Source: Sphyrna mokarran
Taxonomy: Eukaryota
Reading direction: 5' to 3'
Length of the DNA stretch: 64,000 bases
Assembly (NCBI GenBank): GCA_024679065.1
Contig: JAGIQG010000003.1
Span: forward strand, 60,822,001-60,886,000
The notes under the pieces are model-generated. The model made no database searches. It saw nothing but the letters and a program-made list of their open reading frames with translations, and was not told where the DNA came from. Positions 1 to 25,117 of this stretch are shown here, piece after piece (position 1 is the first letter of the stretch; each line of letters begins with the position of its first letter). A program made the position numbers and the translations under genes.

Positions 1-1552
1 GAACTGCTGCATGCATCACCCTTCACGTCAGGTCCCCCAGGGAATTGGAGGAGATCCCTCCATAGAGGGACTTCTGCCGCCTGGTGGCAACAAGGCCCGC
101 TAAGGTGTATCCGGGCGACAGACAAGGAGTGGTAGCGGAAAATGTGTAGCATCAGCTCCGCGTGATGGAAGAGGACACAGAGGACATTTCTGCAAGACAG
201 CACATGTTGCGGGGTACCTGATCTGCGAAGGTGGGCATAGGCTTTGGGTCAATGTGGAATTCTGTCCAAACAGGGGGACATTTGGAGGGGATCCCACCGC
301 ATGCCTGCACTGTCTCAAGACCATATGCACATTTGGGGCTGAGCATAACCATTCTAAGGTCTTGAATGGCTTTGGCTGTGCGCCACATGGGCACCCCTGC
401 GCGTTCAGCCAGCATGTGGGAGACATCCAGCCTTGATCCTAGTTACCTTGGCATTCACAACCCTCTTCTCCACCAGCCACCTGAAGTTATACAGCTGGAG
501 GAGTGGATTCCTGAGCAGCAGCTCTTGCAACTCCTGAAACGCACCCCAGATTTGTATACAGGAGCTGCACATTGTAATTCAGGGAGTGCAACTGATGGAA
601 GAAATATGTTGCTAGTGCACATCATTGTGGAGAAGGCTCAACATAAAGGTACCTCTACAGGGTCTGAAGGCAAAAGGTTGCCACCTGCGTCCGAAGCCTC
701 ACAAGACCTTGACTACCCTCCGCAAGCAGAGATGCAAAACCGTGGCAGAGAGTGCAGTTTGTTGTCCCAGAAGAACTGCATGAGGGATTTCTGGAGATTG
801 GTAACAAAGCCAGAAGAAGGGATCAAAGAGACCGGCCAGTACCACAATATGGAGATGAGCAGCTGGTTTATGATGAGAATTGTGCTGTAGGACCGCACTC
901 GGAGCAGTCCTGTCCAGAACTCAGGCGGGTGGAAACTTTAGCCTCTAGGTCCTGCCAGTTAGCTGGCCAGGATTCGTTGACTGGGCAGAGATGGGCCCCC
1001 AAGTAGAGGAGGTTGGTCCTGCTCCAAGTGAAAGGCCTCAGCTCCTCTGGAAGGGGATCCATCTCCCACAGACCAGAGGTCCGGAGCACTTGACCCAGTT
1101 GATCCTGGTGGAGTATTTGGCAGAGTACACCACGAGGCATTTTCATATCTTCCACAGCCGAGTCCATGAACACGAGGAGCATGTCATCGGTGTAAGCCAA
1201 CAGGACCATCCCTATATGCATGCTGCGCAAAGCCAAACTTTGCAAGAGGTGCAGGAATGGCTCCACGCATATAGAATACATTTGGTCCGACAAGGGGCAG
1301 CTCTGCCGTACCCCTCTCCCAAAGCGAAAGGGCACCATCGGGGACCCGTTAAACTTAATTAGACACTCTGCGGCAGAGTACACTAATGGGATCCGGGCAA
1401 CGAAATGTGTCCCGAACTCGAATGCCAGCAGAGCTTTGAGTAAATGCTTGTGCTCCTCCTTGTCGAATGCCTTTTCCTGGTCTAATGACAAGAAGGCGCT
1501 CGACAGACTAGCCCTCTGGGAATGATGGATTAAGTCCCGAACGAGATGGAGA
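1..1552 (-). mobile_element. Tx1-clade (L1 superfamily) non-LTR retrotransposon, 5'-truncated, degenerate ORF2 (RT); continues off the left edge
   Basis: Minus ORF 868-1491 carries the RT motifs SLDQEKAFD, GRGVRQSCPLS and LAYTDD, typical of Tx1-like RTs. Bases 1-130 closely resemble 3444-3580 (same family). Confidence 0.9.
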
Positions 1553-1706
1553 CTAAGATGTGCGAGTTAGGTAGATTGGCCACACTAAATTGCCAGGGGT
1601 CTAGCTAGGGTAAATGCATGAGGTTATGGGATAGGGTCTGGGTGGAATTGTGGACGGTGCAGATTCAGTAAGTCAAATGGCTTCCTTCTGCATTGTATAA
1701 TTCTAT
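1553..1706 (+). mobile_element. 3' half of an HE1/V-SINE-like SINE (CR1-type tail)
   Basis: Sequence aagatgtgcgagttaggtagattggccacactaaattgcc followed by tail aaatggcttccttctgcattgtataattctatga. Matches the complete copies at 40000 and 50092. Confidence 0.8.
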
Positions 1707-2164
1707 GAAGATTTGCACCCTTTCTGGTGTATCATAATCACTCCTTTTACTGTAGCTGATATTTAAAATGATGAATTGGCAACAGCCAAGGAACATACAT
1801 TTGAAATATGGCTCTTATGTGTCTTGTTCAAGAGCAGCATCATAGAAATAATAAGTTACTTCCAGAGTGATTAACTAAATGAAATTATTTTTTTAAGGAT
1901 CATAATGATTGAAAGTAGAGCATTTCAGTTCCATTATTATTGGTACATCTTGGGGACCAGGACTTCAGTACATCGGTCATCATCTCAAAGTTTGCTGATG
2001 ATACAAATATATTTTACAATGAAGACAGTAACACAAATTAGAAAGAAAAGAACTGGAAAAATGGGCAAACAGGGATTAAAATTGTAAAAATTATACAAGA
2101 ACTTAAAAATGTTTGGGAACAGGACAGTGAAAACCCAAAACACTGAGCAACTTTCAGAATCTAT

Positions 2165-2430
2165 TTGCACCTACCCATCTGGTCATGTACATCCCTGCTA
2201 ATTGAGATGTACAAGATTATAACAAGTTTGGAGAAGGTGGACAAAGAAAATCTGTTCCCATTAGTTGATGGTACAATGCTGAGGGAGCACATATTTAAGG
2301 TATTAACAAAGGATTGCAGGGGGACTATGAGGAAAACATTTTTGCACAGTGAATAATATGACTGGAACTCACTGCCCATGAGAGTGATGGAAGCAGAAAC
2401 AATAAGATTACCACCTCTGCTTGGACATAT
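2165..2430 (+). mobile_element. CR1-type LINE 3' fragment
   Basis: Translates as LIEMYKIITSLEKVDKENLFPLVDG..R.H.FKV, the CR1 ORF2 C-terminus; compare 20480-20740. Confidence 0.75.
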
Positions 2431-2827
2431 TCGGAGAGATATTGGAGGAAGTAACGTCACAGAAAGTTGGTGGCATAAGCAAAGTGGCTTTCAGGAACTG
2501 CAAGAGAGGAAGATAAATCAATTTTAATTATGCAAACAGGATAAATTTGCAGTGAGGGTGACTAATGATATCAGTTTGGAGGGAAAATAAACTTTACTCA
2601 CTTTTAATACAAGCGATTTCAGTGATATAAAATCTGCTTACTCTGAAGGGAATTTTTTTTTGTCTCTACCTGTGTTTTTAATGAACTAAAAAGATCTGAA
2701 CTCCCACTCGTATCAATTGCACATGTCCTAACATCTGCTGCTTGTGCACAATCTTTACATGAAATTCAAACACTAGCAATCCCAATGCAGCCAGCAAAAT
2801 CCCAGCGAATCAGACTCATTTTCAGTG

Positions 2828-3720
2828 ACACACTGATTAGCACTGCTGTCTTACAGTGCCGGGGACCCTGGTTTGATTCCCGGCTTGGGTCATTGTCTAT
2901 GTGGCTCTGCACACTCTCCCCATGTTTGTATGGGTTTCCATTGATTGCTCCAATTTCCTCCCACAGTCCAAAAGACATACTGGTTAGGCCTCTTTTAGGG
3001 CAAACCAAATAAATCAACTCAAATTAACTCAGGGATAAAGTAAAAGGGGCAGGTTCCCAAAAGGAGGGGGAACAGCCTGAACAGGAGTCTGGGTGCGGTA
3101 GGCATCAACTGTGCCCGGGCACACTGCAAGTTCCCTCTTCAGGGACACCTGACTGTGAAAGTAGCCTCGGTAGAGGGTCAGACAGTTAGGATGGATGACC
3201 CCGTTGATTGCCTGCTGCCTGGGCCTGTTAGTGATGAGTTTTGCCAGATCCAGGTGCAGGTTCACGAGTAGGTCGCCAACCCAACCCGCCCCTGTCTGCA
3301 CCAAAATCAGGATTGAAGTGCAAACAAAACATCAATAAAAGATCCTTCAGGAAAACAAAAATGGAGTGCAAACTAAAACACAAAACAAAAACATGGTCCA
3401 TGGACTCCACAAGGCCACAAAAGGGGCAATCTTGGGAGCCGAAACTGCTGCATGCATCATCGTCCATCCCAGGCCCCCAAGATAATTGGGAAAGATCCTT
3501 CCGTAGAGGGACCTCCACTGGGAGCCTCCGCCGCCCGGCAGCAACGAGGCCCACCAAGGTGTATCCAGGCGAGACAAGTGCTGGTTAGGTGATTAGGTGA
3601 ATCGTTCAAAATTCTCCTTCAGTGTATCTGAACAGGTGCCAAAGTGTGGTGATTAGGGGATTTCCATAGTAACTTCATTGCAGTGTTAATGTAAACTTAC
3701 TTGTGACAATAATAACTAAA
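2828..3720 (+). mobile_element. HE1/V-SINE-like SINE (2828-2988 plus 3581-3720) split by a Tx1 insertion
   Basis: tRNA-like head (ttagcactgctg...ggtttgattcccgg) and V-domain ...ctcccacagtccaaaagacatactggttagg. The SINE resumes at ctggttaggtg (3581) with tail ...aacttcattgcagtgttaatgtaaacttacttgtgacaataat. Confidence 0.8.
2989..3580 (-). mobile_element. Tx1-clade LINE 3' fragment with C-terminal CCHC zinc knuckle; TSD CTGGTTAGG
   Basis: Minus translation CPFCGLVESMDHVFVLC and ...LLVNLHLDLAKL. CTGGTTAGG is duplicated at 2980-2988 and 3581-3589. Confidence 0.85.
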
Positions 3721-4659
3721 CTTAGCTCTTGGCTTTCTTTCATACTTTAAGTTTTAAATTTGATTGGGCAGCACTGTGCTGGAGCTGATTTCACCTTGTG
3801 GCAATACCTCATAATAGTGGGAGCTGTAATTTCTTCCCCTTCTTGGTGGTTGCTGATGATAATTGGGTTGAATTTTAAAAAATATTGTTTTAAAATGAAG
3901 GAAGTAAATTTTCAGCATTATGAGCAACAAATAAGCAATGGGACTGACAGGATTGCTCTACAGAAAGCTGGCAGAGTTGAGGGGCCAAATCTCCTTGAGT
4001 GCCATAAACAACTCAATAACTTTAGCAATTACAAGACTGTCCATGTGGGCTACCCTCAAGTTCCACTCCAAGCCAGACAAAACCATTCTGAATAAAAACT
4101 ATATCATTCAGTCACTGGATCAAAATCCTAGAACTCTCTCCCTAAGAGAAAGATTTGAATGAGGTGTTCTTACATATGGTGTTCCTACACCATATGGACT
4201 GCAGCCATTCAAGAAGGCAGCTCATCATTACCTAAGGGCTGCAGTTAAGTACTGACAATAGCAATTGGCCTAATCAATGACACCCATATGCCATGGATGA
4301 ATAAATAAACAAAAAATCTGGAAAATACATTGGAACATAGAACAGTATGCTATGCCGAACATGACATCAAATTAAATTAATCCCTTCTGCCTGCACTTGG
4401 TCCATATCCCTCAGCTTCTTCCCTGCTTTTGAATGAACGTCCCTCATATTGAGTTGATCTTTCCCTACACGTTAGCTATGTAATACTACATTCTGCACCT
4501 TTTCCTTTCCTTTTCTATGTATTTCCTTTTCAACAGCCTTTGTCTGTTTAGCGCAAGAAATAACATGTGACCATAATAAATCAAATCAAATCTATTCCAT
4601 CCATTTTTGCTTCAGCCATGAAGATGCCCAAGCAGAGTTGTTGGTGTTGGAATTGGTGT

Positions 4660-5300
4660 TGTCTCGCCGCCAGCCTCACCCTGTTGATGTCATCGCGCCG
4701 CCTGCGTGGCGACGGTGCGGCGGGACCGGATGTGAGGTAGGGCCCGCGGGCTGGCCGGAAGTGGCGATGTGGGCTGGCAGTTGCTGCGCAGCGTCGCTGA
4801 TGTGAGGCGGAGAGAGAGGGAACGGAGGCTGCAATCGGCGGAATCAGGGTGGGTGCCGTTCCTTTGCTCCTTCCCTGCGCGCCCCGGTCCGCGGCTCAGA
4901 CTAACCCCCCTCCCCTCCGTCACCTCCCGGTCCCGGGCTCCATTGCTGGGTTTGGGGCTTTATGATTGATATTATTTGACGCCGAGGCCTGGCGAGCCCG
5001 GGCTCCCCCTTTCCTTCCCTAAGGGAAGATGGGTTGCCCCACCCCCCTCATCGCTCTGCGCATCGTTGCATCCCGATTCCTGGAAAGGAGTTGGCGGCGA
5101 CAGGGCGCTTGATGTCCCCCCCTTTTGTTTTTGGGAGATGGGTGGGTGGTTGTTTCGGCCCGGGTAGGGAGTGGGCGTGGGGGGGCGTTACCTCACAATG
5201 TCGGCGTTACCTCCTGGTCTGTGTTTGCGGCCATTGACAATTGGCCTCCTACTTGTCACCCTCGGAGCCAAAGTAACATCGGTCTCGCGAACTGAGACCA
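4660..5300 (+). promoter_or_regulatory. CpG-island promoter of FAM168B with two ETS/GABP-type sites
   Basis: The only GC- and CpG-rich island in an otherwise CpG-depleted window. ACCGGATGT at 4725-4733 and CCGGAAGT at 4755-4762. Confidence 0.75.
4770..4848 (+). other. FAM168B: Putative non-coding exon 1 of FAM168B (start approximate)
   Basis: Lies inside the CpG island and ends at donor AGG|GTGGGT (GT at 4849-4850). The next exon begins at 15011, 15 nt before the ATG. The TSS is inferred. Confidence 0.6.
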
Positions 5301-8300
5301 GCTGATGGGTAAAAGAGGACTTACGGAAGGCACATTCGAAAAGGCTTGTATTTCAAACTTGAATATTGGCCCTTTCTGTGTGCGTGTGGTCTTTGCTTTG
5401 TTATTGTCGACAGTTCCATGCAAAGTGGGATCTAAAGCCCCACATCCGAGATTTTAATTGCACGGATCGTTATTTTGACCCACTCCGATTTAGAACCAGC
5501 ACTGCTACTTAATTTACCATAAAAGAGGGAAAAAAAGGCAACTTGCAAAACCATGCATAAATTTGTATTGAGAACAGAAAATGATGAAACTACTCAGCAT
5601 CTGTGCAGAGGGCAACAGAGAAAGCGTCTCAAGCCAATCATCTTTCACCAATGTTCGAAAGTGTTTCACTTTCGATAATGAGGCCTTCTTGAAATTAATG
5701 TATTATTGCTTCTTACTGTGGTGCATTCTTGCTTCAGGTAAAGGGATGGATTTACTTTTTATAGCAACTGCAAGATATTTTTGTTTACAAATTGTGTGGC
5801 ACTGAGACCAGTTGTGCCATCCTCTAATAAGTCTGAGAGAGTAAAAAACAAGAATTGTGAACAGCAGTAAAAAAATTCAGAATGTGTTCTTTATAAAACC
5901 CCACACAATTGAGGGTGCCTCACCAGTATTCAAAATCCCAATTTCTCAATTTGGTGTTGCCTTGGCCCTCTTTAGAGAAACTGGCCTGTGAGCCCATTAG
6001 GTAATTTTTGCAGTTCAGTTTGACCCTGGTTGAGTTGTTCCTGCGCTCCATTTATCCATCTTAGCTCTTTATTTGTCGCTACCCTTACCTAACATAAATC
6101 TATGGATTTCAGTCTTGGAATTAGCCAGTCGTCTACAGCCTGGAGACTTGAGATTTTAGCTTGAACCTGTAGGTTCATGTTGTGTCGTATTTGTTCTTAA
6201 TTCATTGTACATTTCTGCTGTAACTGAAGATGGAACTGAAACCATCAATACTTTGTTTTGATTTTGCTTATTTCATGTTTGCTGTCTTCAAACAAGTTTT
6301 ATAGTTTCTCAATGGTTCAAGTAGACATAATGCCACATGTCACTGTACTAAAGTACCAATGGCAATGTGTGTAATTCATTGTTACTTCTAATTCAAATGC
6401 TCCATCATCATAATTAGCAAACTTATGCAGTAGGAAAATAGGAATTCATGTTTAGTCTGTGATTTGACTGTTGAGCCATATTTTTGATGTAATGTGGAAG
6501 GCACAGTGAACCGTAGAGATTCTCTTTGTGTGCTTTGGGCTCTTCTCTCACTTCCTGTAAATAATTTAATTTTTAAACCGTATTCAAGGCCTTAATAGCA
6601 GTATTTTCTGAAACTTGAGGATGCTTGGAAGAAGTTGCCTGAATTGTGTAGGATATAGATTTGAAAAGCAATTTGGAATAAAAATGTGCAGAATTATTAG
6701 AAATGTGTTTCAGTGTGAGATGGTTATGGGTGATTTGAATTATATGAATATAGGTGATATATATTAATACTCTTAAGTGTTATGACTTTGTTAAATACAA
6801 TAGCATGCTTAGATTATGTGGCAGACTAAAATGAGCAGACTTTTGCGTAGATATTAGTTTTCCTGCTAATAACAATGCAGTAAGCAACTAATATTCAGCA
6901 TAAATATAACAAAATATTTTAAAAATTATGCTTAGCTACAGTTAAACTATGGTCTTTGGATGATATTTAGCACTACGTCAATGCTAACTGTGTAGTACAG
7001 AACAGTAGACTTTGCCACAATGGAAATCCGCTTATGTAAGTGGCTGATATTGAGTTTTGTAATTGAAGAAAACACAGGGAAAATAGATGTTGGTCTAATC
7101 AGATATATTTTCAATCATAAGAGATTTTGTTTGCTGATAGGGCATTTCTTAACAGCTTCTATGTGTAGCTTGAGGTTGTGTGCATTGTTTTGATTCGTCC
7201 CAACAGCGGTATAAGCCACATGAAACTTTATTTACTTGTTTTTATTGTTAAGCTTAAGACCATGAACTGACCATGTACCTTGTACAGTAACATTACTGAC
7301 CCACTTTAAGATGCAAAATTGCGATATTGCACCCATGTCCCATTTGTGTTGTGTACTCAGTTGCAATTGATACAAGACATGTGCTTAAGTTTGCAATTTT
7401 AGATTGTGACTCAACCTACTCAATAGCTGAGATTCAAATTTTAATATGGGTGTACGTGGCAGAGTGACCCAGTGCCATAAAGCATTGATAGTATCTAAGC
7501 AATATTTACTTTGTAGTTGGAACTATCTACAATTTTTGGAATTGTCTGCAAATTATCTCCTATTCAGTCTTGGATCCTCTAAGTATTGATGCTACTTTGT
7601 TCATCAAGCCATCAGTATAACTGGATCTAATGTGTATTTACATTTGATCTAAATACGCCATGAATTGGGTATTGCCTTATCATACTACTGACGTTATATT
7701 CGCAAAGATGTTGGTGGCTTCCTTTTTAGTATCTTATTTTAAAAAAACATTGAAAAATGTTGCAGTACAATGAAACATGAATTGTGCATTAGTGACTTGC
7801 AGACCAAATTTGTTTCAAAATTGGCCAAGTTTTCAAAATCATAAGCTGCAGCAATTAATTCCATTGTTTTCCTCTGTTGTGCCATCCCATAAATCTATAA
7901 AGTAGCTCTCTTACTAGAAAGTACCAATCATTGCTGAGTATGCATTTGGTCTGTTCTGCACAATGTAATTGGCAAGAATAAAGCAGAGATGCATGTCTTA
8001 CTGAAGGAGAGAAAACCTTTATTATTACACCAGGCAACAACGTGTTTGTGCTTTCCATTTGTAGTATCACATTAGTGTGAAGTGGACAATCATATCAGAA
8101 ATGCTGTTTTCTTTTGAGTGTATATGTTGACCTGCTTGAATTCACTGTTCAGCATTTTTATTCATCTTTATAAAAGATGAAAATTACTTATTGGATTCTT
8201 ATTGCTATTGTACTAGGTGTAATTTCATCAAATGCAGCCTATCAGTTACATGGAAAGATTTCAGTTGTTACTTCCCACTGTACTGCACACCAGTTCCCAT

Positions 8301-9698
8301 TTGGGCAAGTGTGGAATACCAATGTTTATGATGGTTAGGGAGAGGCTGGAATTCTAACAATTATCCCAGCCCTTGGTCATTCTGCTCAGTGTGCAGATGG
8401 GTTATTGTGAAAGCTTATAGTCAAATAGACTTTGAAAATATATTAATAAATGCCAAGGTAGAATTTTTGGGTCTCTGTAGGAGTCCAGGGCCTTAAATGA
8501 ACTGTTCAATTGGGTCACCTCTAAGATGCAATTGTATTATACAAGTGATACTGTTTTAATTTGAAGTTATTAAATGCCTATTGAATTCAAGGATTGTCCA
8601 TTTTCTTACCTTCCTGTATTAAATAAACTACTTGTGAATGGGAGTTCTTGTTGCTGAATTTCCAGTTAATGATTTAAAAAGAATTCAAAACAAGAACCAC
8701 CAGACAGCAACAGTTTCCAATATGAAGAATGGAAGAGTAACCAAACAAATCAATTTTTTAATTGAAAAAATATTTTTGATCACACTTTACTTAATTAGCC
8801 TCTCTGTATTTATAAATGCATGAATAATGCAGTAGGTTGGCTTCAGGCCAAATTGGTTAAGACAGAGTTTGTCTACCTACCTCTCAGCATTGCCAAACCA
8901 CAATAGCTTTCTGACCCTGGTTGTTTAGTGCTGCCAAGATCACAAGTTTCCTTACTTTTGCCATGTGTTCTGCAACCTCGTTTATTGTTTTCTTTATATC
9001 AGTTCTGCAAAATGAAGAACCTTTCTTGAAATCCTTCCAAATCCTAGAACCTTTTATCGAATAGAATTAACTCGAGATACAAAACAACCCTCCCAACATT
9101 TAAAAGTATAAGAATTATAGATCAGTTATATTGACATCCATTTTTCGGAAGTTTTGTTAGTTGTCAGTTTTCAAAGGGGTCATGATCATTCTTTCTAATA
9201 AGAATTGTTTTGAATAACCATTGCCAATTTCTGTTTAATACAGTGCTTTTGTAGCCATTAGTGTTTTGTCATTCTTTGCTATTTTTAATCTTTCCCATTA
9301 TCCAGTATCAATGATATTTTTCAATTTTTGCAGACTTTCTTTTCTGGTGCTATGTTTTCTCTTACTATTTTAGTTGTTTTTTTTGGTCAGATAGAACTCT
9401 TGTGTCTTAGACCATGTATAACACATTACATTTTGAATATCTACTGATCTTGAGTCTCTTTATGCATTAACAGTTTATTGTGGAGTCTCTGATCTGGCCT
9501 ACTGAAATCAATCTTGAGTAAATCTAGAGCGTTAGTAGCTGTTTTAGTAGTGTTACGCCTTTTCAAAGACGAAGTTGAATCAATCATACGTAATCTGGAG
9601 TTCTTACCCTAAGTAGCCTACGTGTAACTCCAGACTTAGAACAACATGATTACCCTCTGAAATGGCCTAGCTTGCCATTCATTTGTATCAGGGATATT

Positions 9699-9990
9699 GG
9701 CGGCATGTTAGCACAGTGGTTAGCACTGCTGCCTCAGCATCAGGGATTTGGGTTCAATTCCCATCTTGGCTTACAGTCTACCTGGAATCTGCATATTCTT
9801 TGTGTCTGTGTGGGATTTTTCTGAGTGCTCCAATTTCCCCCCCATCGTCCAAAAGATTGATTAGGTACATTGGCTGCACTAAATTCCCCATTTTGTCCTG
9901 CACAGGTGCTGGAGTGTGGCAACTAGGGGATTTTCCCAGTAACTTGATTGCAATTTTAATGTAAGCCTACTTGTGACACTAAAACAGATT
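9699..9990 (+). mobile_element. HE1/V-SINE-like SINE, alternative (non-CR1) tail
   Basis: ggcggcatgttagcacagtggttagcactgctgcctca head, GGTTCAATTCC B-box, tail ctaggggattttcccagtaacttg...gtaagcctacttgtgacact. Confidence 0.8.
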
Positions 9991-10944
9991 AACCATCTAC
10001 CATCATCCTAGGTGTGTCCCACATCTGAGAATCTATTCAAAAGCTGTCATACAGGCTGGCATGACATAGTCACACTCGCTGAATCTTACCATAAGATCAT
10101 TGTTCCAAAAGCATCTATCAACGTTCTTGGGCACGTTCTATTCTGTTAGTAGGACTGACTGACTGCAGGTGACCGAGTGGTAAACAGTTGAGAGTGATCC
10201 TGGGAGTCTTCAACATTGATTCCAGATTTGATGAAATCTCATTGTAACAGGTCAAACAGGGTCAAGGACATCTCCTGCTGATGACCGCCTGCTGCACTGA
10301 TGATTCGGGAAGTTGTATTCTGAGATGAGGGGCTACAATATCCATGACCTGGAGTTGCTTGGCAGCACCACTACTGACAGAGCTGGTAGAGTCCTGAAGG
10401 ATATAGCTGCTACATTGTGTCTGCAGACATATTGTGGGCCAGATATGGCTTCAAATGTCATAAATATTTTCCAGTGCAATTACAATATGGGCATCTATCC
10501 AACAATGAAAAAATAAAAATTACTAGAGATGTTCACATCTGGCAGCAACTGTGAAGAGAGAAACAGTGTTAATGTTTCAGTTCAATGACCTTTCAGCTGA
10601 ACTGGAAAAAATCAGATGTAGCAGGATTGAACCAGGTACAGAGATGAGGAAACCTGGGAGGAAAGGAAAAGAAACGAAGGGATCTGTGATGGGGTGGAAT
10701 ACTCTGTACTTTGCTGAATGAATGCAACTCCCAAAAACATTCAAAAGGCTGAACACCAGCCTGGGCAAATCAAGGGGGCTTGATTAATACTCCATCCACC
10801 GCCTTAAATATTGACTCAGTCCATTGCTGTTGTAGCATGGCCAGATGCCATTAAAGGATGCACTGTAGCAACACTTTAAGACTTCTTTTATGACACCTTT
10901 CAAACCTGCAGCCAATGTAATTTAGGACAAGGGCGCTAAATATG

Positions 10945-11222
10945 GACAACACAGTGGTTAGCACTGCTGTCCCTCAGCTCCAGGACCTGGATTTGCTTCC
11001 CAGCTTGGGTCACTCTACAGAGTCTGCACATTCTCCCCTTGTATTTGTGGATTTCCTCCCACGGTCTGAAAGACATGCTGGTTAGGTGCATTGGCATTGA
11101 TAAATTCTAGGTCACTGTACTTGAACAGGCATTGGAATGTGGGGTCTAGGGGATTTTCACTCACTTCATTGTAGTATTAATATAAGCCTACCTGTAGCAT
11201 TAATAAATAAACTTCTAAACTT
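10945..11222 (+). mobile_element. HE1/V-SINE-like SINE, alternative tail
   Basis: acagtggttagcactgctg head, gacatgctggttaggtgcattgg core, tail ctaggggattttcac...taagcctacc...aataaataaac. Confidence 0.8.
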
Positions 11223-12599
11223 AAAAATCCCAGGAATGAGTAGAATACTGAATCCTGTTGCACAGAACTTTTAACTTGGTAGTTTTTCTCAGATGCTGTT
11301 AGGATAGTATTTTGGAGAACTTCAGTTTAGTGAATTTCTGGCTTACGGTTGAAATGCAGAATTTCTGAGATTTGACCTCATTGTATCAGATGAATTTAAA
11401 CTGAGTTGGAACATTTGAAGCGTCTGGCATAGGGGAGTTATCAATTGAATTGCTCTGGTAAGAATGGGGACGAGACAATTCAAAACCAATCCCACTCTCC
11501 TCTGGTCATATTTTTAAATAGACCAAAAGAGGGTTGCCTAAGGTAGTTTATTATTATGTACTGAAGCTTCTTAATTAAATGATATGAGAATAAAATTCTG
11601 AATTACTGAAAATATTCAAAATAATTTAATTGTCGATTGTTTTAGTACTTAGCCATTGGAGGTAGTAGTCAAAAGTGAGCTGGGTTTCCAGGGAGTAAAA
11701 ACTGTGGCGGGGTGGAGATAGAGTGCTTGAAGCAACAAACTGAACATGGGGTAACTCGTGACAATACGGAAAGGGGTTGTGGTAGAGGCTTAGAAGTCAT
11801 TAAATATTACACTCTTGGTTCCTTACCCCTAAAGGAAGAAAAATAATTGGAGAGAATTATCGATGTAGAAAATGTATTGCGATTGCATTAAAATGCACTT
11901 TTTAGGTAAACTAGGCTAGTTTCACAATTTGATATTTCTTGCACTGATGCATACAAACACTGGTATGTATTAATTTAAAAGTGTACTCAGAAATGTACAA
12001 AACTTCACTAACTTATATTAAATTTCTGTATTCAATTGCAATTAACCCGAGAACCTACTTGTAAATTCATTTAAGTCAATGAAGTGATTTTTGATCATGT
12101 GCTGAAATGATTGCTCTAAGATTGCTTCTGATTTATTTTTTCAAAATGTTTGAAAATGACGTTTATAAATCTTCTTCAACTAGTCATTCTGATTAGACAG
12201 TTGATTGCCCAAGAGCACAGTTTTGAGTTATAGTTCACTGACACAGTACAGCAATGGGTATAAATGTCACTTGTACAAAAAAGCCATTGTAGATCATAGG
12301 TTAGATTTTAATTTTTGTTGAATATTGACACATCATAATTCATGAAGCTTACTGTTGAATTTTGTGTGTAGATTTGTAGTCTGGAGGGCAAATAAAATGC
12401 ACAGAGAATTCAGAGGTAGCACAAAAGAAATAGTAAGATGTTAAACGGGGCTAGTGTAAGAGAGAATGCAATATCTTCTAAGTTTAGTTTACTGTTCACA
12501 TATGTGAAAGCACAAGAGAATGGTAAACTGCAGGCTCTTCTCCGTGTTGATAAGAGATCACAGATTTAAGAAGTGATGTCAAAGAAAGCTTGGCAAAGA

Positions 12600-21694: not shown

Positions 21695-23503
21695 ATTCTC
21701 CAAAATGCATCACCTCGTATTTGTCCTGATAAACTCCATCTGCCATTCTGTGCTCAAGTCTCCAATCCATATCCTGTTGAATCCTTTGGCAATCCCCGGC
21801 ACTTTGAGCAACTCCTTCAATCTTTGTGTATCTGCAAGCTTACTAATCAGACCACCCACATTTTCTTCCACGTCATTTACGTACACTACAGAAAACAGCA
21901 GTCCATGCAGTGATCCCTGCAGAAATACCACTAGCTACAGATCTCCGTTCTGAAAAACACCTTTCCACCGAAATCTGAATTCTGGCTCAAAAATAGGACC
22001 ATTTTCAAGTATACAGATTTCCAGTGGGCTATCAAGGCTGCTTTAATTACTGTTCTTAAGCTTTATTTTTGGTCCCTTGGTTTGGAAGCATTTTAGAAAT
22101 CCTGAACACTTAATTTGTGAATTTAGTCCCACTGCATGATCCAAGTTTGTACGAGATGCTTCTTTAATATTAGCCTCTAAAATCTGTCCACCTTTGTATA
22201 TCAATATGGTTTGAGGAAATAAATCATCAGACAGGTTTATTATTGAAGACTGAGAATTGTTGACTGTAATGATGTTATTGCATTACACACAAGGTCTTGA
22301 ATTCCCATTAAACAATCGCTAATCAGGAAGTTAGCTGATTAGCTCGTATCTTGTTTTAAAATGCTTCAGGGTAGACCTGAGAATGGACCACATGATTTGA
22401 CTTTTGGAAGCTGAGGAATATATTTAATTCATAAACATGATGGTTAGTTGTGTGTTGCCTGACATCATCCTTGCAGTTCATAGCTGGGATGTAGCAATGT
22501 TAGCGGTTTCAGACTCAATTTCTAGTACATCCCCTATTTATCAAGATTTTTAACTTCTGCAATCAAGAATTCAGGAATTTACTAATGTGTTTTTAAAATG
22601 GAGAACTAGCTGGCATGAATTCCAACAAATAATTTAAGCTAAGTCTTTGGGTATTTCTATTTTGAGTTGTACCAAGTTATTAGAATTCTTGTATAATTCA
22701 GTCTGCTAGCATTGAAGAAAGTGAATGAAATATTTGTTGCATAAATTTTGGTGGGTAGATGAAAGACTAAGCATTATCTGCAGCGCAACTTAAGTTGCCA
22801 TACAAGATCGTAATTCACATTGTTGGTTATGTAGCCCATGTATTTGAAAATTGGCAGTGTTTCTGCCCTGATGCTGAACAGTAGAGAACTATAAGAGTTG
22901 ACAAATATTCTGGATTTGCTTGCACAGTGAGCTACCTGTATTGTGGTGTAGGCAAAGGAACGTCATATACACAACTTTACACGCAGCCTGGGCTCATGGG
23001 TGATTTTGGAACTGTCATTTATTTAAAATAGACACTGATGAATTGTTAAGATGACTGCCAGTGGGTCAGGTGAATTTTGCTTAGTCAACACAGACTTATC
23101 AAGCTTCCAGAAAATTTCACGTTGTTTAACTGTGGATGTAATGGACATAAGATAAACAAGTGGATAATCTGCCATTATTTAAACCTTGCACAAAACACAA
23201 TCTAGGAGTCCATTGGTTCTCTCCAGATTTGTTTTTAGAAAACGGAACCTGATGAGACCAATTATCAATCTGTTAAGTGTAAAAGCTCACCATGCAAGTC
23301 CCATTGTATTATCAGTGATCATTTAGCTTTGAGCCATTTTGGGTGAACTATGGCTGTTAATCATTATACCAAAACTGGCTTCTGATACTGAGATCCCTGT
23401 TATCCCAAGACCTGATGTAGAGATGCCGGCGTTGGACTGGGGTAAACTCAGTAAGAGGTCTGGCAACACCAATTTTAAATCCAACTGATTTGTTTGATAG
23501 TAA

Positions 23504-23543
23504 ATCTGCTAGCTTTCGGCGTTTGTGCCTTCATCAGGCAAAT
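23504..23543 (-). ncRNA. Minimal type I hammerhead ribozyme (minus strand, left arm)
   Basis: atttgc-CTGATGA-a-ggc acaaac gcc-GAAA-GCTA-gcagat. Stem I atttgc/gcagat is fully paired, stem II ggc/gcc, palindromic AGCT stem III. Confidence 0.75.
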
Positions 23544-24747
23544 GAGGTGTTCTGGTCTCCAGAAGCACACGTATCAGCACAGACAGTTTACAGATTGCTG
23601 ATTAGAATGCAAATCCTTACACCTAACCTGCTATTCAAGTCTTAAAGTGGCTAACAAAGGAACACTGAGTGCTGAGGTTAGAGAGATGTGTATTGTCTCC
23701 AGACAGCACAGTAAGTGAGATTTTTTGCTAACCCAGGCAAGTCATGGGGGTTACAGATAGTGTGACATGAAGCCAAGATCCCTGTTAAGACCGTCCTCAT
23801 GTGAACTTGGCTATCAGTCTCTGCTCAGCGGCTCTGCGATGTCATGTGTCATGAAGGCCCCCTTGAAGAACGTTTACCTGAAGGCCGGAGGTCGGAGACC
23901 GAATGCCCGTGACCGCTGAAGTGTTCGTCCACAGGAAGGGAACTGTTTTGCCTGGTGATTGTCGAGCGATGTTCATTCATCCGCTGTCGTAGTGTCTGCA
24001 TAGTCTCCCCAATGTACTATGCTTTGGGACATCCTTTCTTGCAGTGTATTAGGTAGACAATATTGGCCGAGTTGCAAGAGTATGTACCGTGTACTTGGTG
24101 AATGGTATTCTCATGTTTGATGATGTCATCCATGTTGATGATCTGGCATGTCCTGCAGAGGTTGTTGTGGCAGGGTTGTGTGGTATTGTGGTCACTGTTT
24201 TCCTGAAGGTTGGGTAGTTTGCTGCGAACAGTGATCTGTTTAAGGTTGCGCGGTTGTCTGAAGGCAAGAAGTGGGGGGGTGGGGATGGCCTTAGCGAGAT
24301 GTTCATCATCAATGATATGTTGAAGACTCCGGAGAAGATGTCGTAGCTTCTCCGCTCCGGGGAAGTACTGGACAACAAAAGGTACTCTGTCCACCGTGTC
24401 CCATGTTCGTCTCTTGAGGTCAGTGTGGTTCATCACTGTAGCACGTCGGAACTGTCGATCGATGAGTTGAGCGCCATATCTTGTTCTCACGAGGGCACGG
24501 TCTTAACAGGGATCTTGTCTTCATGTCACACTATCTGTCACCCCCATGATTTGTCTGGGTTAGCAAAAAACCTCACTTACTGTGCTGTCTGGAGGCAATA
24601 CACATCTCTCTAACCTCAGTGCTCAGTGTTCCTTTGTTAGCCACTTTAAGACTTGAATAGCAGGTTAGGTGTAAGGATTCGCATTCTAATCAGCAATCTG
24701 TAAACTGTCTGTGCTGATGTGTACGCTTTTGGAGACCAGAACACTTC

Positions 24748-24787
24748 ATTCGCCTGATGAAGGCACAAACGCCGAAAGCTAGCAGAT
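24748..24787 (+). ncRNA. Minimal type I hammerhead ribozyme (plus strand, right arm; sense in FAM168B intron 4)
   Basis: attcgc-CTGATGA(24754-24760)-aggcacaaacgcc-GAAA(24774-24777)-GCTA-gcagat. Confidence 0.75.
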
Positions 24788-25117
24788 TTACTATCAAATA
24801 AATTGGTTGGATTTAAAATTGGTGTTGCCAGACCTCTTACTAAGTTTATCCCAAGACCTAGCAGAGAACTGGACAGGCACCAACAAGATGATAGTTGCAG
24901 AGAAAGTCTGTGCCATTTTTGCCTTCTAAGAGCACTCAGTTGCCACATGGTTTAAGAAGCAGGCTCTGAAACTTGCTGCAAGTCATCAAGCAGCAGAAGT
25001 ACTTGATCTATTTCCTCTTCCAAAGTTCACCTGAGAACCAACCTCCAAGATATTTGATTACAAGAAGCTTCATAGTTTACCGTGAATCCTTTGTTTTATA
25101 AGACCTTCATATCAATT

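Follow-up and report, generated by a model that had tools for sequence, protein, structure and literature searches.

A Tx1-like LINE subfamily with a preference for one position in the V domain of V-SINEs

The first part of the window (the whole stretch of 64,000 nucleotides analysed here) holds two Tx1-like LINE copies that each adjoin V-SINE sequence, and this raises the question of whether a LINE family uses a fixed position in an abundant SINE as its landing site. The original prediction held that the family lands after GGTTAGG in the V domain, that both window copies are evidence of this, and that the specificity could derive from the targeting of telomere repeats. The features of the window and of the loci fetched for comparison are collected in Table 1.

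Table 1. Coordinates of features in the window and of groups of loci elsewhere in the assembly
Feature	Position or loci	Strand	Remarks
Tx1-like LINE copy 1	1-1552	minus	broken ORF2, reverse transcriptase to C-terminal part; 5'-truncated at 1552
Open stretch in copy 1	871-1554	minus	reverse transcriptase match RVT_1, E 7.4e-11
V-SINE 3' half, tail type t2	1553-1710	plus	begins 19 bases upstream of target base; 5' half absent
V-SINE 5' half, tail type t1	about 2836-2988	plus	head and V domain up to target base
Target-site duplication CTGGTTAGG, left copy	2980-2988	plus	putative first nick after 2988
Tx1-like LINE copy 2, subfamily A1	2989-3580	minus	ORF2 3' end and 3' UTR
Target-site duplication CTGGTTAGG, right copy	3581-3589	plus	
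V-SINE 3' half, tail type t1	3590 to about 3720	plus	same SINE as 2836-2988
Subfamily C 3' junctions	L035, L037, L041, L044, L047, L048, L049, L052, L057, L018, L184, L193, L202, L237, L243		
Promoter-like 5' starts	L188 about 7300-7520; L189 about 7640-7760; L183 about 7550-7600		
Loci of the C771 cluster	L002, L004, L005, L009, L015, L021, L027, L093, L095, L112, L139-L141		

The second window copy gave a clear answer for its own locus. As predicted, it lies antisense in a V-SINE directly after GGTTAGG, and CTGGTTAGG flanks both of its ends, a duplication that extends to 11 bases if one mismatch is allowed. The SINE half beside it corresponds to positions 1-160 of the SINE profile, which places the junction at offset 0, and its ORF2 end retains the CxxC...HxxxxC motif and has an internal deletion of 75 bases. 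Copy 2 is an insertion of the A1 type, a subfamily delimited below, at the V-SINE target base. Three other features of the window were recorded. Between the two Tx1-like copies (1960-2400, plus strand) lies a decayed LINE fragment with a KFADDT-like reverse transcriptase motif, which we take to be of the CR1 type. A GC- and CpG-rich segment at 4650-5300, about 1 kb from copy 2, resembles a promoter or first exon. Close inverted copies of one further repeat occupy about 23430-23820 (minus) and 24470-24860 (plus), each with a GGTTAGG unrelated to the V-SINE.

A C-terminal CCHC zinc finger in ORF2 is a feature of the Tx1 clade. When the reverse transcriptase of copy 1 was compared with PDB, the five best of ten matches were LINE-1 ORF2p-type chains (the best being human), ahead of R2. 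By this comparison and the RVT_1 match, the ORF2 reverse transcriptase is of the non-LTR kind found in L1 and Tx1. The frame at 3228-3584 (minus) reads CPFC...HVFVLC, for which Pfam returned only a weak zinc-ribbon match (E 0.036). Members of the clade also have an N-terminal APE-type endonuclease. Tblastn with P0006 and P0007, the latter carrying PF03372, located an endonuclease region in the long relatives L188, L189 and L196, all of other subfamilies; Pfam found no endonuclease domain in 24 broken frames, and no A1 copy reaches that region. Likewise, a reverse transcriptase search yielded no long A1 copy with an endonuclease among the 29 loci examined of 40 other matches, returning other subfamilies or fragments that lack the 3' end, and the longest A1 copies are below 1 kb. 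None of the seven proteins returned by a protein search is named Tx1. The label Tx1-like is accordingly a probable one, drawn from the L1-like reverse transcriptase, the CCHC motif, known features of the clade and the original prediction. Two of the protein models encountered, P0002 and P0004, are ray and shark gene models that include pieces of the reverse transcriptase of this LINE, probably through annotation read-through into repeats. Together with the V-SINE content, the ray and shark matches suggest that the host is a cartilaginous fish.

To describe the target, 67 near-full SINE copies, taken from the window and from the fetched loci, were used to build profiles. They fall into two tail types (t1 and t2) with a head and core common to both. 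By eye, the core resembles the V-domain rows of Ac1, MER6 and V_HCD in the available part of the PMC6887750 supplement, and the agreement extends to the cut, where TTAGG precedes a TTGG motif; the cut lies in the 3' part of the V domain. This conserved central V domain would place the target repeat among the V-SINEs, the superfamily to which HE1 of sharks and rays, a SINE of the tRNA-headed type, is assigned in the accessible text of PMC4824008 and PMC3747384. HE1 has a 3' tail in common with the HER1 LINE. Stretches like box A and box B were seen by eye in the SINE head, and Rfam returned nothing in window positions 1-12000 at E<=1. The site is abundant: one exact 20-base form has 30,348 matches in the genome against 179 for the control. 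In 375 kb of background sequence, 69 SINE pieces cover 3.9% and offer 83 sites (counted generously), which gives a chance of 5.5e-4 per insertion of landing within 2 bases of a site on the right strand.

Searches over the 2.77-Gb assembly then addressed whether other copies lie at the same position. A first similarity search found 29 other loci and no GGTTAGG junction among them (0/29), a misleading result because these loci were mostly other subfamilies and duplicates. A pattern spanning the junction had four genome matches and its control none; each of the four is independent, lies inside a V-SINE and has different outer flanks. A flank-free pattern gave 70 matches, all of which were fetched. 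They comprise 65 distinct copies, and 57 independent ones once seven duplicates on contig C771 and one internal repeat are subtracted. With the window copy excluded, 12 of 56 insertions lay at offset 0 in antisense orientation where 0.03 were expected (p 4e-28), and four more lay beside the site, two of them (L029 and L116) with the SINE 3' half only and two (L096 and L121) with a left junction 11-14 bases short. The site is also occupied by L062 and by the second copy in L126, neither of which enters the count of 56. Another two copies (L086 and L087) share a second V-SINE position at offset -64 in the same orientation, with no matching SINE continuation on the opposite side.

The copies at the site are differently truncated, with lengths between about 45 and 775 bases, and each has its own duplication. 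Insertions occurred in SINEs of either tail type and in either of the tandem V units. Kojima 2015 set the threshold for a target preference at more than 20% of flanks of one sequence kind, and the share found here is 12/56 (21%) for exact cases and 16/56 with the near cases, rising to 16/24 in subfamily A1. A single SINE insertion multiplied by duplication or hitch-hiking, or an overlap by chance, could in principle produce such a count: duplicated loci exist (eight distinct C771 copies of one insertion; L029/L030; L238), and V-SINEs are common in the background. However, duplicates were collapsed before counting, the observed number far exceeds the expected one, and every site copy has a duplication of its own, while lengths, outer flanks and SINE tail types vary from copy to copy. 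Multiplication or chance as the general cause is refuted by these independent flanks, lengths and duplications, and we give it almost no credence.

What distinguishes copies that use the site from those that do not? The copies can be sorted by two letters of the 3' UTR: among 24 with T/T, the subfamily A1, 12 lie at the site and four beside it, while sister copies with C at the second letter gave 0/29. These letters were picked after the first set had been seen. A prediction was written beforehand for new loci, namely that at least half of the T/T-type copies and none of the C type would be at the site. A second pattern with 73 matches supplied 27 new independent loci, a set that leaves out five new places (three of them in the C771 duplicate cluster). 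Nine of the 27 were at the site (p 2e-23); for one of these, L233, the placement comes from a motif of 15 bases, as no SINE was scored there. By subfamily, the nine came from 20 non-C copies, a set that includes some other-subfamily copies or altered ends, against 0/6 of the C type and 0/1 other. The T/T half of the prediction was thus narrowly missed (45%) and the C-type part held, and the held-out contrast between subfamilies is not significant alone (p 0.06). Copies of A1 found off the site numbered 8/24 in the first set and 11/20 in the held-out set.

In a tree of 93 3' ends, every one of the 16 site rows belongs to a single clade of 43 rows (support 99/96), which includes window copy 1, and 0/50 rows outside the clade are at the site. 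A wider pattern had 348 matches, and among the first 30 plus 11 picked loci none outside the clade was at the site. Within the clade the site copies are not monophyletic (11 changes), and the topology is star-like with end branches around 0.14, which indicates that the family is old. These results show that the V-SINE target preference of one decayed LINE subfamily is real and well supported. The enrichment in SINEs that the original prediction called for is present in both sets, and its central proposal, a family landing after GGTTAGG in the V domain, stands beyond chance in narrower form: it applies to one subfamily, and even in A1 the site is preferred rather than obligatory, with about half to two thirds of the copies using it.

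How the site is chosen can be approached through the duplications. Scored in 28 loci, they are 5-17 bases long, and those in good condition mostly have 13-16 bases. In most cases TGGATTGG or TGCATTGG comes next. Both duplication copies carry the letters of the local SINE or local flank, which argues against a transduced flank. Only about five SINE bases are retained before the cut in L029 and L116, and L003 and L239 are off-SINE insertions at sequences that mimic the target motif. Because of these short sites and mimics, and because tandem V units are hit, local sequence seems to be enough for targeting. Target-primed reverse transcription is an established mechanism. We consider it likely that the old A1 subfamily inserted repeatedly at one V-SINE base through endonuclease recognition of TAGG/TGSATTGG (the slash marks the cut). 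A putative A1 endonuclease would recognise this local motif and make the first nick in the SINE sense strand after GGTTAGG, from which target-primed reverse transcription would start, and the second nick would fall on the opposite strand about 14 bases upstream. Target specificity would then reside in the endonuclease, with the V-SINE serving as an abundant, mostly harmless landing site. This reading is ranked first because for Tx1L it is established, in the accessible text of PMC1950540 and PMC4494074, that the specificity of the endonuclease determines the target.

Alternatively, a read-through RNA from a master copy in a V-SINE might anneal to a nicked V-SINE and prime there, with an endonuclease of loose specificity. 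Read-through pairing is known in R1 and SART elements, a transcript that reads through a copy at the site would have the orientation needed to pair with the primer strand, and pairing would explain how sisters about 80% identical have unlike targets. We nevertheless judge it unlikely: the left duplication follows local letters (L029, L116 and L003) rather than one master flank, so that the read-through extension was not copied, and pairing still requires a nick at one base. RNA pairing may act as a helper. Tethering, in which polymerase III factors or open chromatin bring the LINE to SINEs and a convenient spot is cut, would suit a target of the tRNA-headed SINE type (PMC4824008, in the part available) and the two copies at the second SINE position 64 bases upstream. 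It is improbable, however, as SINE pieces that lack a head and the second of two tandem V units were hit at the same base (L029, L116, L090, L229 and L248) and motif mimics outside SINEs were used as well.

The target motif also bears on the proposed telomeric origin. Inheritance of the specificity from a telomere-repeat-targeting ancestor is suggested by GGTTAGG, which is common to the site and (TTAGGG)n, but the bases after the cut, TGSATTGG, are unlike the telomere repeat, and sister subfamilies have unrelated targets. None of 65 junction flanks and none of the four GGTTAGG junctions is telomeric, in an assembly with 14,375 five-unit matches; this is a weak test, given that SINE sites outnumber such units many times and that old telomeric insertions would be lost. 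TRAS1 and SART1 are telomere-specific LINEs of the R1 clade, not of Tx1. According to the part of the literature available, their target contains TTAGG, as the V-SINE site does; they insert in telomeric arrays, whereas the copies here flank none. The telomeric part of the original prediction thus found no support, and we regard such an ancestry as very improbable.

Window copy 1 proved to be a different case. Its 5' end is indeed joined to the second half of a V-SINE, as had been noted, but the junction at 1552/1553 falls 19 bases before the site, which lies after 1571 and reads AGTTAGG (1565-1571), one mismatch from GGTTAGG. The 3' end had been expected to abut the GTTAGG of a SINE. It lies 554 bases left of the window (about 9447 in locus L031) in a T-rich flank and abuts neither GGTTAGG nor a SINE; the 10 kb of L031 gave no SINE-query match at E<=1e-4. 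With the 3' end checked in L031, copy 1 has no target-site duplication. This end carries the letters of a non-targeting sister subfamily, D, and copy 1 is D-like at 5/6 informative columns of its first 314 bases, one of these columns being group-defining. The idea that the two window copies are one segmental duplication was ruled out by a mean column identity of 75%, unlike SINE tails and different flanks. As evidence for targeting, then, the pair reduces to copy 2, the 3' end of copy 1 belonging with sisters that gave 0/29 at the site.

On balance we lean towards copy 1 being a rearranged relic, in which an insertion at the site later had its 3' end and the SINE 5' half replaced or deleted; this is more likely than a clean case or chance. 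As to the route, our guess is that the copy suffered a deletion or recombined with a sister copy lying upstream. In the background, 7/69 SINE pieces start no more than 25 bases upstream of the site. This corresponds to about 9e-6 per base and strand, which makes a chance abutment unlikely, an estimate that holds for one copy whereas the locus was picked from many windows. Chance may account for copy 1, and for this copy alone. The same arrangement, with the 5' junction in a target and the 3' end elsewhere, occurs in L188 and L189 with an LTR-like target. The antisense orientation of the SINE piece relative to the LINE speaks against a template switch to SINE RNA at the 5' junction, and that reading was dropped.

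The sister subfamilies, although about 80% identical, have different targets: some use an LTR-like repeat, others T-rich sites, and in others no target stands out. Subfamily C always occupies one position in either of two short, related repeats, each roughly 230 bases long, which are LTR-like with TG...CA ends, a TATA-like box and AATAAA, and its duplications are 13-16 bases in L035, L044 and L052. Near-full-length Tx1-like copies start with the sequence just after the TATA-like box of this repeat, as if the LINE had taken its 5' end from the promoter of its target, by analogy with the U1/U2 heads of some Tx1-Mar families. In L083, L137 and L234, three A1-type copies that lie outside SINEs, the left flank ends in GATT and the duplications are 12-17 bases long, possibly another preference. 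A left flank ending in CTCTC is common to L131, L138 and L200, and T-run flanks occur in L070, L103, L123, L130 and others. Tx1-like 3' ends are stacked on or inside one another in L034, L046, L053, L113, L129 and L134, with up to four in L134. On C771, at about 105.7-109.4 Mb, one Tx1-like insertion has been multiplied in a segmentally duplicated cluster. L238 holds, at about 1500-1970, a pair of oppositely oriented Tx1-like 3' ends whose left flanks are almost identical, which suggests an inverted duplication.

Landing in other mobile elements is a known habit of Tx1. The targets given in the accessible text of Kojima 2015 (PMC4494074) are piggyBac, Mariner, Harbinger and LTR elements, microsatellites and RNA genes, with crocodilian Tx1-Mar in Mariner-N4_AMi, Tx1-9_AMi in Harbinger, and Tx1-8_Crp and Tx1-4_AMi in LTR elements; a 16-base duplication is given there for SINEU-3. 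Like these crocodilian families, A1 is old and prefers a fixed position and orientation inside an interspersed repeat, and in both settings sisters have different targets. A1 differs in that its target is the conserved V domain of a SINE, that text containing no SINE target, and in its host, a genome of the cartilaginous-fish type rather than a crocodilian one. Xenopus Tx1L, an APE-type LINE, likewise uses one site of another mobile element, the DNA transposon Tx1D, and its endonuclease nicks the target site in vitro (PMC1950540 and PMC4494074, in the parts available). Tx1L is described as stringent in contrast to the partial site use of A1. The endonuclease of Tx1L was assayed, whereas A1 is a decayed subfamily from which none was recovered.

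No SINE-targeting Tx1 was found in the openly readable full-text literature, nor in the accessible portions of PMC8869645, PMC3747384, PMC5786205 and PMC5499810. The V domain as an insertion target is likewise absent from the portions available of PMC4824008, PMC3747384 and the PMC6887750 supplement. Relative to the literature covered, the SINE is a new target for the known Tx1 habit of landing in other transposons.

More speculatively, and with considerable doubt, a single Tx1 radiation may have split at about 20% divergence into subfamilies, one per host repeat (the V-SINE core, the LTR-like repeat and T-rich DNA), with the V domain as a long-lived landing pad. The V domain is suggested as a pad for Tx1 lineages across vertebrates because TTAGG/..ATTGG is kept from sharks to teleost Ac1 and mammalian MER6. 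If true, the radiation would be a natural series for mapping the endonuclease residues that switch the target. The significance is limited by the element being old and broken here and by Tx1 landing in transposons having been described already. With genome-wide counts, a SINE, and specifically its unexplained conserved V domain, joins the targets of sequence-preferring LINEs. Close sisters with unlike targets in one genome offer a handle on how APE-type endonucleases change specificity, a change relevant to tools for site-directed insertion.
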